From contig AP024680.1 of assembly GCA_025999275.1 (NCBI GenBank), positions 419,578 to 483,577 of the forward strand: a stretch of DNA of 64,000 nucleotides. The letters are read 5' to 3'. The first letter of the stretch is position 1; every line of letters begins with the position of its first letter. The translations under genes and the position numbers were made by a program. A model generated the notes under the pieces. The model had not been told where the DNA came from. It was given only the letters and a program-made list of their open reading frames with translations, and did no database searches. Shown here piece after piece: positions 47,164 through 56,346 of this stretch. The DNA comes from Patescibacteria group bacterium (GTDB lineage: Bacteria > Patescibacteriota > Microgenomatia > UBA8517).

Positions 47164-48240
47164 ATGAAAATTGCTTTTTTAAATATTTATAACGGTATAG
47201 TCAATAGAGGGGCAGAAACTTTTGTTAAAGAATTAGCTAGTCGTTTGACTTTAAAACACAAAGTGACTGTTTTTCAATCAGGGGGTAAAGAGGGTTTTGA
47301 AAGATATGAAGTTGAAAAGATAAATATAAATTTTGAAAGCAATAGAGGACTAAAATCTTTTTTTATTTTGCGTCGTCTTTTTCTTGACTATCAAAACAGA
47401 TCTATTTTGGTTTTTACATTAAAATCTTTACCTAAAATTTTAAAAGAAAAATATGACGTTGTTATTCCTGTTAATGGTGGTTGGATGCCGGCAATATTAA
47501 GAATTGCAACCTGGCTTTATGGAGGGAAAATGGTTATTTCGGGGCAATCGGGAATTGGTTGGGATGACAGGAACAACCTTTGGTGTTTTCCTGATGTTTT
47601 TGTAGCTCTTTCAACTTATGCCAAAAATTGGGCTAAAAAAGCTAATCCTTTTGTAAAAGTTACATATATACCAAATGGAGTTGATACTAATAAATTCAAA
47701 GATGAAAGAAAGGCAAAGAAAAAGGATAAAAGAAAAACTATTTTGGCAGTAGGGGCTTTTGTTTCTGATAAAAGGCTAAATCTTGCAATAGATGCAGTTG
47801 CAAAAATTAAGGATGCAAAGTTGATTATTGCAGGTGGAGGTGGAGATTTAAAAGAAGAAATATTTAAGTATGGAATGAAAAAACTTGGAAAGGATAGGTT
47901 TGAAGTATTAAGCGTTTCTTATGAACAAATGCCTGAGGTCTATCAGATGGCTGATGTTTTTACTCTTCCTTCAAGGTCTTCTGAGGCTTTTGGGAATGTT
48001 TTAGTTGAGGCTATGGCGACTGGTCTTCCTGTGGTGGCGACAAATGATCCGATAAGACAGGAGATTGTAGGCAGGGCTGGAATTTTGATCGACCCGACTG
48101 ATGTTGATCAATATGCAAAGGCCTTAAAACAGGCTCTTGAAAAAAAATGGGGAAATCTACCCAGAAAACAAGCGGAGAAGTTTGGTTGGGATAAAGTTTC
48201 GATTTTATATGAAGAAATATTTAAAGAGGTTTCTAAATAA
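47164..48240 (+). CDS. glycosyltransferase family 4 (GT-B)
   Basis: 'SEAFGNVLVEAMATGLPVVATN'. Confidence 0.85.
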   Translation: MKIAFLNIYNGIVNRGAETFVKELASRLTLKHKVTVFQSGGKEGFERYEVEKININFESNRGLKSFFILRRLFLDYQNRSILVFTLKSLPKILKEKYDVVIPVNGGWMPAILRIATWLYGGKMVISGQSGIGWDDRNNLWCFPDVFVALSTYAKNWAKKANPFVKVTYIPNGVDTNKFKDERKAKKKDKRKTILAVGAFVSDKRLNLAIDAVAKIKDAKLIIAGGGGDLKEEIFKYGMKKLGKDRFEVLSVSYEQMPEVYQMADVFTLPSRSSEAFGNVLVEAMATGLPVVATNDPIRQEIVGRAGILIDPTDVDQYAKALKQALEKKWGNLPRKQAEKFGWDKVSILYEEIFKEVSK

Positions 48241-51385: not shown

Positions 51386-51467
51386 TTAGTCGATTTTAAC
51401 AAATTTTAATTTTGTACGCATTTTTAGGAAGAAAAATAGCTTCTTAAGTGGTATAATTTAGGTATAA

Positions 51468-51761
51468 ATGGATAATTTTTCAGCCTCTTTTAAGAAACTT
51501 TTTTGGGATGTTGATTTATCATCTCTCGATGAAAACAAAAACAAGGATTTTATTATAGAAAGGGTGCTTGAGTTTGGAAACTTGGAGGATTTTGCTGAGC
51601 TTAAGAAGCATTATGCTCTTGAGGATATAGTTTCGGTTTTGAAGAATTCTTCTAATTTGTCTTACAAAACTGGCAATTTTTATGCTTTAATTTTAGGTGT
51701 GCCAAGAAAGGAGGTTCTATGTTTGAGGAAGCCATTGACACAAAGACAAGACAGGTTTTAG
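51468..51761 (+). CDS. small hypothetical protein, putative partner of downstream AbiEii-like nucleotidyltransferase
   Basis: 97 aa; overlaps downstream gene by 43 nt in a different frame; TGGTATAAT box at 51449-51457. Confidence 0.4.
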   Translation: MDNFSASFKKLFWDVDLSSLDENKNKDFIIERVLEFGNLEDFAELKKHYALEDIVSVLKNSSNLSYKTGNFYALILGVPRKEVLCLRKPLTQRQDRF

Positions 51762-52339
51762 ATAAGATAAAAGAAACAGGAGCTTTGGATAATTTTTATT
51801 TAGCAGGTGGAACTGCCTTGTCTTTAATTTTGGGACACAGAAAATCCATAGATCTTGATTTTTTTTCTGATAAGTTTCCAAAAACAGAAATTTTGCTTGC
51901 CAAGCTTAAAAAACTTTCTCCTGTTGTTATAAATCAGGATAAAGGCACTCTTGATTTATATATTGATGATGTAAAGGTAAGTTTCTTGGAGTATAGGTAT
52001 CCTGTTGTTGGTGATTTTCTTGAGTTTGATGGAGTAAAAATTGCCTCACTTTATGATATTGCTTGTATGAAGTTAACGGCTATTTCCTCTCGTGGTAGTA
52101 AGAAGGATTTTATAGATATTTATTTTATTCTTAAAAAAATCAGTTTTGAAAAACTTCTTGATATTTTCAAGAAAAAATATAAGGGTGTTGATTATCAAAT
52201 GAGCCACATTCTAAAGTCCTTGGTTTATTTTGAAGAAGCCGACACTCAACCAGATCCTCAATTTTTGGTAAATGTTGATTGGGAGGAAGTTAAGAGATTT
52301 TTAGAAAAAGTTGTTACCTTATCTTTCCAATTTTTGTAG
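51719..52339 (+). CDS. nucleotidyltransferase, AbiEii/AbiGii-toxin family-like (DUF1814)
   Basis: 'NFYLAGGTALSLILGHRKSIDLDFFS' matches AbiEii 'GGTAL...R.S.DiDf' N-terminal motif. Confidence 0.55.
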   Translation: MFEEAIDTKTRQVLDKIKETGALDNFYLAGGTALSLILGHRKSIDLDFFSDKFPKTEILLAKLKKLSPVVINQDKGTLDLYIDDVKVSFLEYRYPVVGDFLEFDGVKIASLYDIACMKLTAISSRGSKKDFIDIYFILKKISFEKLLDIFKKKYKGVDYQMSHILKSLVYFEEADTQPDPQFLVNVDWEEVKRFLEKVVTLSFQFL

Positions 52340-52340
52340 T

Positions 52341-54059
52341 TTATAAAGGAATATTTATCCAATTTGAGCAAAAATCTTCATAGCTTAGATTTTCTAAATC
52401 ATAGTATTTAAGATAATGGAATCTTCTGTAAACATCTTTGCTGATTCCTTGGCAAATGTCACTGTTGTAAATATTAATTATTACGCCAGCATCTTTTTGG
52501 TCGATTATGGTAAAAGTTGGTTTAAATGGAATATCGCATGCTAATCTTGAACTTTTTATATAAATTGTGTTCTTGCTTATAGTTTCTGGGCAAAGTTTGG
52601 TAAATGTTATACTTCCCAATTGGTATTCTTTGTTTTCCTCAATGTATGGCAAAGGATTTTTGATTGCATCTTTTATATCTTTGTTTTTTGATAAAATTAG
52701 AAATCGGAGTAAGGCTGATCTTGGATTAGGGGTGATTATTTTTACTTCTTTATTTATATCTTTATACTCCAGGTATTTGCAGATCACATTTTCACTTAAC
52801 CAGTATTTTTCCTGTCCAGTTATTGGCATTCTGAATAAGTAGAAGTGATAAAAGTAAGTAATTGATGTTATATATAGGCAGATTAGTATGGGGATGACTA
52901 ATTTTTTAATTTTTTTTGGGACAATGTTAACAAGAAATGTAAAGCCATATGCAGAGAATATTATAATTACAGGGAGTAATAGAAACGATCTGTTAATTAC
53001 GGATATTTCTATTTTACTTATGGCAGTTGGAATTGGGGCGATTACTGCGAGACTGATCAAGAATAGGAATGAATATATCTTCTTTTTATACATTTCAAGT
53101 AAACCTATGGAAATTAAGATTATGTCAATTAGATAAAAAAGTCCGTGGTATTCAAATCTATATAATGCTCTAGTATCCCCACTTATAAAAATTACTTCAG
53201 GGGAAAAGGCACTCAGGTATTGTTTAGTTTTTTGTCTAAATGACTCGGTATATTTATTTATAAAAATATTTGTCAAAGGGTTTTGGATTATTTGTGTTCG
53301 GTTTTTGTTTACAGAAGATATTATTTCAGGAGTGAATAACGATATTTCTTTCGATCTAGCATTTATGTCTGAATTGGGTAGATTTAGACTAATAATTAGA
53401 TATGTTAGAAGAAAGATTGTGGTTAGGATTGTAATTATTATAAATTCTTTAGGCTTTATTTTCTTATCGACCTTTTTCTTAAACAGTAGGGTTATAAGTA
53501 GGATTGGTAAGAGTATTATCTTACCTCCGTGGTAGGAGAAAAAAGCCATTATAAGAATTAAGAATGGAATAATTAATTTCCAGCCGTTAAAAATTAGCAG
53601 TGTTGCTATGAAAGATAAGTAAAAAAGAAGCGCGAATGGAGAATCTCCTATATATGTTGAGAGATATATGCTCCAGGGATTTACTAAAAAAAGGATACTT
53701 CCCAATAAGGCTGTTTTTTTACTATTTGTTAACCTTAATGTAAGTATGTAAACGAAAAAGGCAGTTATTAGATTGACAAACATATATAAGATTCTGAGGT
53801 TGGTAACATTGAATTTGATAATTTTTAGTGGTACTGATGTTAAAATTGGGGGGATAGCGCTAATTTTCCCATAGGTTTGACTTTCAAAAAGAGATATGGG
53901 GAATCTTGAACCTGAAATATCCCGATTATATAAGGAATAGCTTTCTGCACTTATTGCGTATTCTACTTCATCATCTGAGATTCCCGGTGGAATAAGGTTG
54001 ATGGAAAAGAAGCGAATGATGACAATAGCTATTATGGTTATTATGGCGATTTTTTTCAT
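52341..54059 (-). CDS. GT-C fold membrane glycosyltransferase, PMT/ArnT-like paralog
   Basis: 'LIPPGISDDEVEYAISAESYSLYNRDISGSRFPISLF' parallels the tandem paralogs; start at internal ATG (54059) of track ORF. Confidence 0.65.
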   Translation of the reverse strand: MKKIAIITIIAIVIIRFFSINLIPPGISDDEVEYAISAESYSLYNRDISGSRFPISLFESQTYGKISAIPPILTSVPLKIIKFNVTNLRILYMFVNLITAFFVYILTLRLTNSKKTALLGSILFLVNPWSIYLSTYIGDSPFALLFYLSFIATLLIFNGWKLIIPFLILIMAFFSYHGGKIILLPILLITLLFKKKVDKKIKPKEFIIITILTTIFLLTYLIISLNLPNSDINARSKEISLFTPEIISSVNKNRTQIIQNPLTNIFINKYTESFRQKTKQYLSAFSPEVIFISGDTRALYRFEYHGLFYLIDIILISIGLLEMYKKKIYSFLFLISLAVIAPIPTAISKIEISVINRSFLLLPVIIIFSAYGFTFLVNIVPKKIKKLVIPILICLYITSITYFYHFYLFRMPITGQEKYWLSENVICKYLEYKDINKEVKIITPNPRSALLRFLILSKNKDIKDAIKNPLPYIEENKEYQLGSITFTKLCPETISKNTIYIKSSRLACDIPFKPTFTIIDQKDAGVIINIYNSDICQGISKDVYRRFHYLKYYDLENLSYEDFCSNWINIPL

Positions 54060-54121
54060 TATCGTTTTTATTATACATTTTTCTCTTAATATTAATCTTT
54101 TTGTATGAGATAATAGGAAAA

Positions 54122-55210
54122 ATGAGAATAGGGATTGATATATCACAGATCGTTTATAAAACTGGTGTTTCAACATACACGGAAAACCTAGTCAAGTCTT
54201 TGCTTGAAGTGGACAAGGAAAATGAATACCTCCTTTTTGGTGGTTCTTTAAGAAGAAGAGAGGGTTTGATTACATTTGCCAGGGAGCTTGATTATAAATA
54301 TGGTTCTCGTGTTAAAAGTCGTATCTTTCATTTTCCTCCCACTTTTCTTGATTTGATTTGGAATAAATGGCATATATTGCCAGTTGAAACTTTTACTGGC
54401 AGACTCAATGTTTTTCATTCTTCAGATTGGGTTCAACCGCCTAGCTATTCTTTTAGAGTAACAACAATTCACGATCTTTCTCCTTTGAGGTTTCCAAAGC
54501 TTACAGACCCCAAAATAGTTGAAGTAACCAAAAATAGGCTAAAGTGGATTAAAAAAGAAGTTGATAGGATTATTGTCCCAAGCCAAGCTACTCGTGAAGA
54601 CCTCTTGCTTTTGAAGTTTGATAAAAAAAAGATAAGAGTAATTCCAGAGGCTGTTGATCCATTTTTTAAAGAGATTGGGCAGAAAGAAAAAGATGCTGTT
54701 AAAAGAAAGTATAGGGCTGAGAAGTTTATTTTGGCTGTTGGGACCAATAAGAGGAAAAATTTGGAAAGAGTTATTTCTGCTTTTGATTTGGTTAGAGCTG
54801 GCAAGGGATTAAAGCTTATTGTGGTAGGAGAAAAACCAGAACCTCATCCAACTATTAGAGGGGTTGTTTTTGCTGGCCATATTAGCAAGGAAGAGCTAAG
54901 GCGGCTTTATAATTCTGCTGAAGCTTTGGTTTACCCCTCACTTTATGAGGGTTTTGGTTTGCCAATTTTGGAAGCTTTTGCCTGTGGATGCCCTGTGGTA
55001 ACCTCCAATCTTTCAAGCATGCCTGAGGTTTCAGGTAAGGCGGCAATTCTGGTTGATCCCTATAGTGAATCTTCTATAGCAGATGGCATTAAAAAGGCAT
55101 TATTAAGAAGAAAGAGTTTAGCAAGAATGGGGAAGAGCAGGTTGTCTTTATTTTCTTGGCAGGAAACAGCTAAGAAAACTCTTGAGGTTTACAAGGAGGC
55201 TTTCTTATGA
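54122..55210 (+). CDS. glycosyltransferase family 4 (GT-B)
   Basis: 'YEGFGLPILEAFACGCPVVTSN'; divergent from the GT-C gene. Confidence 0.85.
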   Translation: MRIGIDISQIVYKTGVSTYTENLVKSLLEVDKENEYLLFGGSLRRREGLITFARELDYKYGSRVKSRIFHFPPTFLDLIWNKWHILPVETFTGRLNVFHSSDWVQPPSYSFRVTTIHDLSPLRFPKLTDPKIVEVTKNRLKWIKKEVDRIIVPSQATREDLLLLKFDKKKIRVIPEAVDPFFKEIGQKEKDAVKRKYRAEKFILAVGTNKRKNLERVISAFDLVRAGKGLKLIVVGEKPEPHPTIRGVVFAGHISKEELRRLYNSAEALVYPSLYEGFGLPILEAFACGCPVVTSNLSSMPEVSGKAAILVDPYSESSIADGIKKALLRRKSLARMGKSRLSLFSWQETAKKTLEVYKEAFL

Positions 55211-56346
55211 TTGTTATTGGCATAGATGGAAATGAGGCTAATATTGCCCAAAGGGTGGGGGTTAATATTTATGCCTTTAATTTGCTTCAAGCTCTGCATA
55301 AACTACAGGATGAAATATCTAAAGACTATAGGTTTGTGATATATTTGGCGGAAAAACCACTCCCTGACATGCCAAAAGAGGTAAAAGGTTTTTGGGAATA
55401 CAAAATCATTCCCGGTAAGGGATTATGGATAATTAAAAAACTAATGCCTTATCTTTGGTTAAACAAAGATCATATCGATCTTTTATTTACCCCAAGTCAT
55501 TATACTGTTCCTCTTTTGCCAATTTCAAGAGTAGTCTCGATAACAGATTTAGGATACCTTGAATTTTCGGAACAATTTGAAAAAAAAGTGTTTTGGCAGT
55601 TAAAGTATTGGAGTGCTATCTCAATTTTTGTATCAAAAGGTATCATTGCTATTTCTAAGAATACTGCTGATGACATTTTACGACATTATCCTTTTGCCTC
55701 AAAGAAGATCAAAGTTACTCATTTAGCGTATGACAATAGCAGGTTTTACTTTCCAATACCCAAAAAAAATGTGCGACAAGTCAAAAGAAAGTATAAAATT
55801 GATAAAAACTATATCCTTTACCTTGGAACCCTTAAACCAAGTAAGAATGTCGAAGGATTAATTGATGCTTTTGATATTGTTTCCAAAGATTTTCCTGATC
55901 TTCAGTTGGTAATAGCCGGCAAAAAAGGTTGGCTTTTTGAATCTATATTTAAAAAAGTTGAAAGCCTGGGACTTGAAAGAAAAGTTATATTTACCGATTT
56001 TATTAGCGAAGATGATAAGGCTCCTCTTATGGCAGGAGCGTCTGTTTTTGTTTGCCCTTCTTTTTGGGAGGGTTTTGGTTTAATTGCCCTTGAAGCGATG
56101 GCTTGTGGGACGCCGGTTGTGGTTTCAAATATAGCCAGTTTTCCTGAAGTTGTGGGTGATGCTGGAATTTTAGTTGATCCTTACAAAAAAGAGTCTATTG
56201 CTAAAGGAATTTCTAAAGTTCTTAAAATGAATTCTTTAGAGTATAATAAGCTAGTTGAGGCCGGTTTGAAACAAGCTGCTCTTTTCTCTTGGGAAAAGAC
56301 TGCTAAAGAGACTTTATCTTTTTTGAAAGATATTGTTAAAAAATGA
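55207..56346 (+). CDS. glycosyltransferase family 4 (GT-B)
   Basis: 'WEGFGLIALEAMACGTPVVVSN'. Confidence 0.85.
   Translation: MIVIGIDGNEANIAQRVGVNIYAFNLLQALHKLQDEISKDYRFVIYLAEKPLPDMPKEVKGFWEYKIIPGKGLWIIKKLMPYLWLNKDHIDLLFTPSHYTVPLLPISRVVSITDLGYLEFSEQFEKKVFWQLKYWSAISIFVSKGIIAISKNTADDILRHYPFASKKIKVTHLAYDNSRFYFPIPKKNVRQVKRKYKIDKNYILYLGTLKPSKNVEGLIDAFDIVSKDFPDLQLVIAGKKGWLFESIFKKVESLGLERKVIFTDFISEDDKAPLMAGASVFVCPSFWEGFGLIALEAMACGTPVVVSNIASFPEVVGDAGILVDPYKKESIAKGISKVLKMNSLEYNKLVEAGLKQAALFSWEKTAKETLSFLKDIVKK

Follow-up and report, generated by a model that had tools for sequence, protein, structure and literature searches.

An AbiEii/MenT-type nucleotidyltransferase paired with a DUF6922 protein: a putative toxin-antitoxin-like module in a glycan locus of a Patescibacteria group bacterium

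The stretch of DNA considered here covers 64,000 nt of the genome of a Patescibacteria group bacterium (GenBank assembly GCA_025999275.1, contig AP024680.1, positions 419,578 to 483,577) and is referred to as the window. Within a glycan locus of the window, two overlapping open reading frames (ORFs) encode a small protein of 97 aa (ORF1) and a nucleotidyltransferase (NTase) of 206 aa (ORF2). The analysis revealed that the NTase belongs to the AbiEii/MenT (DUF1814) family, that ORF1 belongs to the uncharacterised family DUF6922 and that both genes form an autonomous, horizontally distributed two-gene module. As to its function, we consider it rather probable that the pair acts as a self-contained, bicistronic toxin-antitoxin-like system whose partner protein belongs to a new family.

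In the initial annotation of the window, ORF2 had been assigned to the AbiEii/DUF1814 nucleotidyltransferases by a motif that is indeed present in the protein (LAGGTALSLILGHRKSIDLDFF), and the profile, the conserved motifs and the predicted fold all agree with this assignment. The protein matches the Pfam family AbiEii (PF08843) with an E-value of 5.8e-17 and a score of 62.9 bits (cut-off 22.5), and 11 AbiEii models of PADLOC match it as well (best E-value 9.9e-10); an NCBIfam search with the pair gave no significant match. More than 4000 homologues were found, nearly all of which are 200-210 aa long. Conservation was assessed in 88 loci, namely the window and 87 fetched loci, at 42-98% identity. 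The residues H40, R41, S43, D45, K118, R125, D130 and D133 are invariant in all 88 loci, D47, D113, K129 and G30 are conserved in 87 and G31 in 85 of them. In AbiEii, the corresponding motifs comprise G49/G50 (motif I), R63/D67/D69 (motif II), K173/R180 in the context KLxAxxxR (motif III) and D192 (motif IV), and mutating any of them abolishes toxicity (PMC3985639). Every residue that is essential for the toxicity of AbiEii or MenT3 is conserved in the ORF2 family (PMC3985639; PMC7450476). Judged from its sequence, ORF2 is a catalytically intact NTase of the AbiEii/MenT (DUF1814) family.

The NTase also has a feature of type VII toxin-antitoxin systems, a Ser or Thr located two residues before the first catalytic Asp (S43/D45 in all 88 loci). 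In motif II of AbiEii the register is R63-x-T65-x-D67-x-D69 (PMC3985639; bioRxiv 10.64898/2026.01.19.700257), and the phospho-acceptor of MenT3 is found at S78/D80, with S67/D69 as the equivalent position in MenT4 (PMC7450476). S43 stands in the same register as the phospho-acceptors in S78/D80 of MenT3 and T65/D67 of AbiEii, an equivalence that was judged by motif register and not by structural superposition (PMC7450476; PMC11375011; bioRxiv 10.64898/2026.01.19.700257).

The AlphaFold2 model of ORF2 has a mean predicted local distance difference test (pLDDT) score of 95.8. A Foldseek search of the PDB with this model retrieved JHP933 (4o8s, E-value 2.8e-7; 4ok0), ANT(2'')-Ia, MenT1 (8an4) and MenT4 (6y56), and the top matches 4o8s, 4ok0, 8an4 and 6y56 had a probability of 1.0 and template modelling (TM) scores of 0.55-0.61. 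By contrast, phmmer and profile searches of the PDB sequences with the NTase gave no match to a solved MenT or AbiEii protein, and the link to the solved MenT structures is provided by the fold search only. Therefore, ORF2 represents a distant subfamily of DUF1814.

Among the Pfam families, ORF1 matches only DUF6922 (PF21956), over residues 9-58, with an E-value of 4.2e-20 and a score of 71.4 bits (cut-off 27), and it has no profile match to AbiEi or HEPN. The protein is predicted to adopt an all-helical fold of five helices, and its tail is modelled with low confidence. Searches of the PDB, in which AbiEi is entry 6Y8Q, revealed no solved relative of ORF1, either by sequence or by fold. Moreover, no model of PADLOC matches ORF1, and PADLOC presumably includes models for AbiEi. 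An identity of ORF1 as AbiEi, MenA1 or HEPN was rejected because neither profile nor fold supports it. The initial annotation had referred to AbiEii as the toxin of type IV toxin-antitoxin and abortive-infection systems. However, the partner is a DUF6922 protein and neither an AbiEi nor a HEPN/MNT partner, so that the pair cannot be called an AbiE type IV system as such. About 1800 DUF6922 homologues were found at 90% clustering. The members seen occur mainly in bacteria of the Candidate Phyla Radiation (CPR)/Patescibacteria, but also in Deltaproteobacteria, Atribacteria and Acidobacteria and on plasmids of Bacteroidota and Aquificota. A search for DUF6922 or PF21956 found no publication in the literature library used. 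In the tail of ORF1, Cys85, a K-Q pair and an F are conserved, which can be explained as a by-product of the ATG of the NTase gene and of its conserved codons K-T-K-Q-V-L in the other reading frame.

The two genes are tightly linked, and their pairing is no coincidence. A DUF6922 ORF lies directly upstream of the NTase gene and on the same strand in 88 of the 88 loci, and in a reverse look-up three of three DUF6922 proteins were followed by an AbiEii gene. The proposal that the 97-aa ORF is the cognate partner of the NTase is thus borne out, by this linkage and by fusions of the two in at least three divergent lineages. The closest homologues, which share 74-98% identity, are present in Candidatus Woesebacteria (CPR/Patescibacteria), among others in the complete genomes CP058602 and CP055308. 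At least 455 matches were counted among 185,579 species genomes, and their distribution is patchy. The neighbourhood of the pair is conserved within the Woesebacteria clade (nine contigs) and unrelated in 79 other genomes (42-59% identity), in which no glycan genes surround the pair. In these 79 genomes, the 150 immediate neighbours represent 161 Pfam families, mostly with housekeeping functions (for instance, Mur ligase, RuvA, tRNA synthetases and S20), with a minority of AbiEii, Fic, MNT or integrase genes. Neither a third partner nor a pathway is conserved among them. The pair is therefore autonomous and has no functional link to glycans. On a Hymenobacter plasmid, it adjoins VbhA/Fic toxin-antitoxin genes and the tra genes of a conjugative transposon, and CopG and AbrB/PIN genes flank the NTase gene and a divergent DUF6922-like ORF on the Aquifex plasmid ece1. 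A phage origin was rejected since no relatives were found among the viral contigs of IMG/VR and no match in PHROGs, a result that says nothing about a role in defence. In other CPR lineages, the pair can be wedged among core genes (L092, 3694-6795; L090, 3475-5340), for example between S20 and RuvA, with Mur ligase next and an overlap of 4 nt with ruvA, or between smpB and EF-P; the S20/RuvA/Mur arrangement was found in several genomes.

In agreement with the initial annotation, the pair has its own upstream box (TGGTATAAT). This extended -10 promoter-like element ends 10 nt before the ATG of ORF1 in the window and lies 10-13 nt 5' of it in the window and in L001, L002, L005 and L008, which are all four clade loci that were aligned with the window. 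It stays beside ORF1 even where the intergenic region reaches 360-550 nt. A generic scan for -35/-10 promoters missed the box because it lacks a -35 element, and its position implies that the leader of a transcript starting there would be very short or absent. Only AT-rich chance matches were obtained when the 82-nt promoter region was inspected for operator-like inverted repeats. The overlap of 43 nt between ORF1 and ORF2, which are read in different frames, was also described correctly. Among the 88 loci, the overlap is 43 nt long in 24, 52 nt in 45 and 25 nt in 5 cases, and in about 10 loci the genes abut without overlap. The same -1 frame relation is found with the 43-nt and the 52-nt overlaps, which are retained down to 42% identity. 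Furthermore, AAAGGAGG, which covers the Shine-Dalgarno region of ORF2, is conserved in L001-L007.

DUF1814 toxins are known to pair with unrelated antitoxin families, including the 68-aa MenA1 (PMC10435456). The family and fold of the NTase, its intact motifs with the invariant S43, the obligate pairing, the partner-first gene order, the autonomy of the module, the toxin-antitoxin context on plasmids and the patchy occurrence were all counted in favour of a toxin-antitoxin function of the pair. So was the observation that the partner evolves faster than the NTase, as judged by the ratio of non-synonymous to synonymous substitution rates (dN/dS of 0.12-0.23 and 0.07-0.14, respectively); a faster evolution of the antitoxin than of the toxin is the usual pattern. 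By analogy with characterised homologues, we infer the toxicity of the NTase, its RNA target, the mechanism of its neutralisation and any role of the pair in phage defence, in addiction or in stabilising the locus. ORF2 would extend the 3'-CCA end of tRNAs, or the 3' end of another RNA, by nucleotides and thereby arrest translation. The ORF1 protein, translated from the same transcript with its short leader, would associate with the NTase and hold it inactive. It might do so either by blocking the active site, like MenA1, or by inducing the auto-phosphorylation of S43, which would correspond to the type VII mechanism of MenT1, MenT3 and AbiEii. The conserved overlap puts the start of the NTase gene inside the translated part of ORF1; therefore, translation of the partner should limit initiation at the NTase gene and keep the level of the partner at or above that of the toxin. 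The long overlap probably couples or limits the translation of the NTase.

By analogy, MenAT1 of Mycobacterium tuberculosis (MenA1-MenT1, Rv0078B/Rv0078A) is functionally the system closest to the pair. It likewise consists of a short DUF1814 toxin (about 190 aa) and a small upstream partner without a DNA-binding domain, MenT1 is among the best structural matches of ORF2 (8an4, TM score of about 0.6) and its phospho-acceptor T39 is located in the same active-site loop. However, neither in sequence nor in fold could a similarity of DUF6922 to MenA1 be detected. DUF6922 folds into a five-helix domain, while MenA1, with its 68 aa, spans the faces of two toxin protomers, and homologues of MenA1 are rare (21 genes reported) compared with those of DUF6922. 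The AbiE system of Streptococcus agalactiae and Lactococcus lactis resembles the pair in its PF08843/DUF1814 toxin, whose motifs I-IV, with R-x-[S/T]-x-D-x-D among them, share the register of those in ORF2, and in its bicistronic organisation, in which the partner gene comes first and overlaps that of the toxin; this gene order, with the small partner first, is common to AbiE and MenAT. The toxin AbiEii, a tRNA NTase specific for pyrimidines, is inactivated when its partner induces the auto-phosphorylation of T65. In contrast to the 97-aa all-helical DUF6922 protein, AbiEi is a two-domain protein with a winged helix-turn-helix and a C-terminal domain (COG5340). The NTase described here is also shorter (206 aa), its gene overlaps that of the partner by 43 nt instead of the 4 nt in AbiE, and no operator-like inverted repeats were found. 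JHP933, an NTase from the plasticity zone of Helicobacter pylori (4o8s/4ok0), is the top fold match, at a sequence similarity below the detection limit of profile searches of PDB sequences. To our knowledge, neither a function nor a DUF6922 partner has been described for JHP933. The HEPN-MNT (HepT-MntA) systems also consist of two genes, for a minimal Pol-beta-fold NTase and a small helical partner, and are abundant in environmental prokaryotes. However, in these systems toxicity resides in the HEPN RNase and the NTase serves as the antitoxin, and the Pfam profiles HEPN, NTP_transf_2 and Polbeta match neither ORF at E<=1, so that the pair is not a member of this group.

Several observations weigh against a toxin-antitoxin function. 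Toxicity is extrapolated from homologues that lie beyond the reach of profile searches of PDB sequences. The DUF6922 proteins are basic (median isoelectric point (pI) of 9.7, tail with a charge of +5) and the NTase family is acidic (median pI of 5.8). This combination is the reverse of that expected from the electropositive MenT toxins and would fit a nucleic-acid-binding adaptor equally well. Fusion proteins in which the motifs are intact (P0242 and P0389) do not suit a labile, degradable antitoxin, yet they fit a regulation in cis. In CPR genomes, the pair is often packed among core genes and has long been kept under purifying selection, and such a long retention among core genes is less typical of selfish toxin-antitoxin modules. 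Moreover, no direct link to defence islands was seen, and no relatives were found in IMG/VR and PHROGs. Finally, in L014 (1213-1517) a frameshifted DUF6922 gene lies beside an intact NTase gene, which is possibly an assembly error.

The main alternative, which we regard as unlikely but worth serious consideration, is that DUF6922 is an accessory or specificity subunit that delivers nucleic acid to the NTase or activates it, and that both form a non-toxic two-subunit RNA- or nucleotide-modifying enzyme serving cell physiology. An accessory subunit would be in line with the family-wide basic character of DUF6922, with its strongly basic C-terminal tail and the acidic NTase, and with the natural single-chain fusions that have intact catalytic residues. 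It would also be consistent with the synteny of the pair under purifying selection past synonymous saturation, with its frequent embedding, sometimes by 4-nt overlaps, among ribosomal, RuvA, Mur-ligase and EF-P genes of small CPR genomes, with the disruption of the NTase gene in only one of the 88 loci (L059) and with the broken DUF6922 gene beside an intact NTase gene in L014. However, the patchy and context-independent distribution, with 161 neighbour families and neither a third partner nor a pathway conserved, argues against such a subunit, as do the presence of the pair on plasmids inside toxin-antitoxin clusters and the existence of more distant versions of the same glycan locus without the pair. 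Furthermore, all characterised PF08843 members are toxins (PMC3985639; PMC7450476; PMC10435456), and the invariant Ser at the position of auto-phosphorylation is characteristic of regulated toxins.

DUF6922 may represent a large, undescribed family of partners, either antitoxins or regulators, for AbiEii/MenT-type NTase toxins, a proposal that we find plausible rather than probable. In its boldest form, the family would consist of nucleic-acid-binding adaptors or sensors, and the basic DUF6922 protein would activate or inactivate the NTase, in cis or in trans, in the manner of the fused CapRel systems, instead of acting as a classical labile antitoxin.

The toxin family itself is already known, and NCBI and JGI label the proteins as AbiEii-family or as 'nucleotidyltransferase component of viral defense system'. 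It is likewise known that the antitoxins of DUF1814 toxins are diverse (PMC10435456). Undescribed appear to be the partner family DUF6922, which is obligately linked to the NTase, has a fold with no solved relative and is concentrated in CPR genomes, and the conserved overlap of 43 or 52 nt. The DUF1814 (AbiEii/MenT) toxins are actively studied as tRNA-modifying growth arresters, and their unrelated antitoxins share the control by auto-phosphorylation. If the proposed function is true, DUF6922 would be a third such partner family, far larger than the others and without structural relation to them, and would probe the generality of this mechanism. Moreover, about 1800 'hypothetical' proteins would receive a name and a testable function; they are found above all in CPR bacteria, a group for which little is known about toxin-antitoxin and defence systems. 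So long a conserved overlap between genes is unusual, and it may affect expression and set the ratio of toxin to partner.

As stated in the initial annotation, the pair is located within a glycan locus. Upstream, genes for a family 4 glycosyltransferase (GT4), a PMT_2 protein and a family 2 glycosyltransferase (GT2) are followed by minus-strand genes for DUF2304 and GT2 proteins, which diverge from the pair. Downstream, the convergent minus-strand gene of a 611-aa membrane protein is followed by two GT4 genes and a hexapeptide transferase gene. In nine clade contigs (L001-L008 and L113), the pair is found at the same site, between GT2/DUF2304 and the 611-aa gene or GT4. The identity to the window is 77-98% for the NTase and 67-96% for DUF6922 and tracks that of the flanking glycosyltransferases, and the dN/dS values given above, which stem from the clade comparison, indicate purifying selection on both genes. 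The synonymous divergence (dS) exceeds 1 against every clade member compared, except L001. With a value of 0.29-0.32, the GC content does not differ from that of the flanks, and no tRNA gene was found in the window. A recent horizontal insertion was rejected because there is no GC shift, tRNA gene or integrase and because the pair is syntenic at saturated dS. By contrast, six more distant loci that share the backbone GT4-GT4-hexapeptide-g187-GT2-g498 (46-58% identity of GT4) contain neither the pair nor the whole opposite-strand block. Thus, the earlier view of the pair as inserted cargo holds on a long time scale and fails as a recent event: the pair is an old, fixed insertion in the Woesebacteria clade. 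The module would have entered a variable part of the glycan locus in the ancestor of the clade and would then have been inherited vertically under purifying selection.

A role of both proteins in the glycan pathway, for instance in nucleotidylating a sugar, a lipid carrier or a glycan, is highly improbable. The conserved GT2/DUF2304-GT4 position in the nine related Woesebacteria contigs, the identity of the pair, which tracks that of the flanking glycosyltransferases, and the small-molecule NTase ANT(2'')-Ia as the second-best group of structural matches would suit this role. However, the pair has no glycan neighbours in the 79 other genomes, the six distant loci with the GT4-GT4-hexapeptide-GT2 backbone lack it entirely, and the profile is that of AbiEii, with no sugar- or aminoglycoside-NTase family at E<=1. 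The link to the glycan pathway was rejected on the diversity of the neighbourhoods, and a glycan role is largely refuted by this analysis. The pair should be annotated as an old passenger of the locus rather than as a glycan enzyme.

The alignment to homologues revealed two genes and not a single broken one, since 69 of the 88 loci have the layout with a 43- or 52-nt overlap. Among 1.84 billion cluster representatives, a search identified three divergent proteins that combine both Pfam domains in a single chain (P0242, P0311 and P0389), of which P0242 and P0389 have intact catalytic motifs. Compared with its two-ORF relatives, the fusion P0088 (294 aa; L094, 5270-5285) has a single additional A within an A5 run of the overlap, which may be an assembly error or a recent mutation, a natural one-step route from two genes to one. 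That both ORFs are one gene, either through a frameshift, pseudogene formation or a sequencing error or through programmed -1 frameshifting into a DUF6922-NTase protein, is the least credible of the alternatives: single-chain DUF6922-AbiEii proteins are known (P0088, P0242, P0311 and P0389), ORF2 lies in the -1 frame of ORF1 and many relatives have the A-rich stretch CCAAAAACAAAAC within the overlap, yet the NTase gene has its own ATG, which aligns to profile position 1 in nearly all 88 loci and belongs to the layout of the 69 with a 43- or 52-nt overlap, about 10 further pairs abut, a strong AGGAGG precedes this ATG in the window, the A-rich stretch is interrupted there (ACACAAAGACAAGAC) and the overlap, read by eye, contains no slippery heptamer X XXY YYZ, P0088 is accounted for by one extra homopolymer A, and the tail of ORF1 is predicted with low confidence. 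A single gene, frameshifted or programmed, was rejected on the conserved two-ORF layout. The conclusion to be drawn from the alignments is that of two genes, which are obligately linked and have an unusually long conserved overlap. The features of the pair are listed in Table 1.

Table 1 Features of the DUF6922-NTase gene pair in the window
Feature	Position	Strand	Remark
Extended -10 promoter-like box TGGTATAAT	51449-51457	+	Read from the sequence; candidate promoter
ORF1, 97 aa, DUF6922 family	51468-51761	+	Putative neutraliser of the NTase
Shine-Dalgarno sequence AGGAGG of ORF2	51709-51714	+	Read from the sequence; within ORF1 codons R-K-E-V
Out-of-frame overlap of ORF1 and ORF2, 43 nt	51719-51761	+	ORF2 in the -1 frame
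ORF2, 206 aa, AbiEii/DUF1814-family NTase	51719-52339	+	Putative toxin
Motif I, G30-G31 (hGG)	51806-51811	+	Preceded by A29; corresponds to G49/G50 of AbiEii (PMC3985639)
Motif II, R41-K-S43-I-D45-L-D47	51839-51859	+	Catalytic Asp pair; R41, S43 and D45 in 88/88, D47 in 87/88 loci
Motif III, K118-L-T-A-I-S-S-R125 (KLxAxxxR)	52070-52093	+	K118 and R125 in 88/88 loci
Motif IV region, D130-F-I-D133	52106-52117	+	Both Asp in 88/88 loci; candidates for the equivalent of AbiEii D192/MenT3 D211

Damaged copies are limited to two of the 88 loci. Apart from L014, this is the Smithellaceae locus L059 (7998-8624), in which an in-frame stop splits the NTase gene and the DUF6922 gene is intact. In L044 (4701-5399) and L071 (1130-1801), a second, divergent paralogue of the AbiEii family is located a few kb from the pair. 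The intergenic region between the GT2 and DUF6922 genes, which has a length of 82 nt in the window, extends over about 360-550 nt in relatives (L002, 5380-5762; L005, 5188-5762), where the enlarged regions are filled with short tandem repeats consisting of TAAATCC units and GGATGTCGGACATCAGAC-like units. At the other end of the pair, the stop codon TAG of the NTase gene (52337-52339) is separated by 1 nt from that of the convergent 611-aa gene (52341-52343), and in L002 these two genes overlap by 12 nt. There is no space for terminators between the convergent stops, and therefore the convergent transcripts must overlap.

All three GT4 proteins of the locus (47164-48240, 54101-55210 and 55207-56346) pass the cut-off of the model PF20706 ('GT4 in conflict systems'), with 28-50 bits versus 26, at scores far below those obtained with their general GT1/GT4 models. 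The 611-aa protein (52341-54176, minus strand) is a hypervariable multi-pass membrane protein without a Pfam match. Its identity to the window is only 31% in L001, even though the genes on either side share 96-98%, and 44-55% in L002 and L008, and the gene is absent in L005-L007. This pattern suggests an exchangeable cassette, glycan-polymerase- or GT-C-like, that is under diversifying selection.

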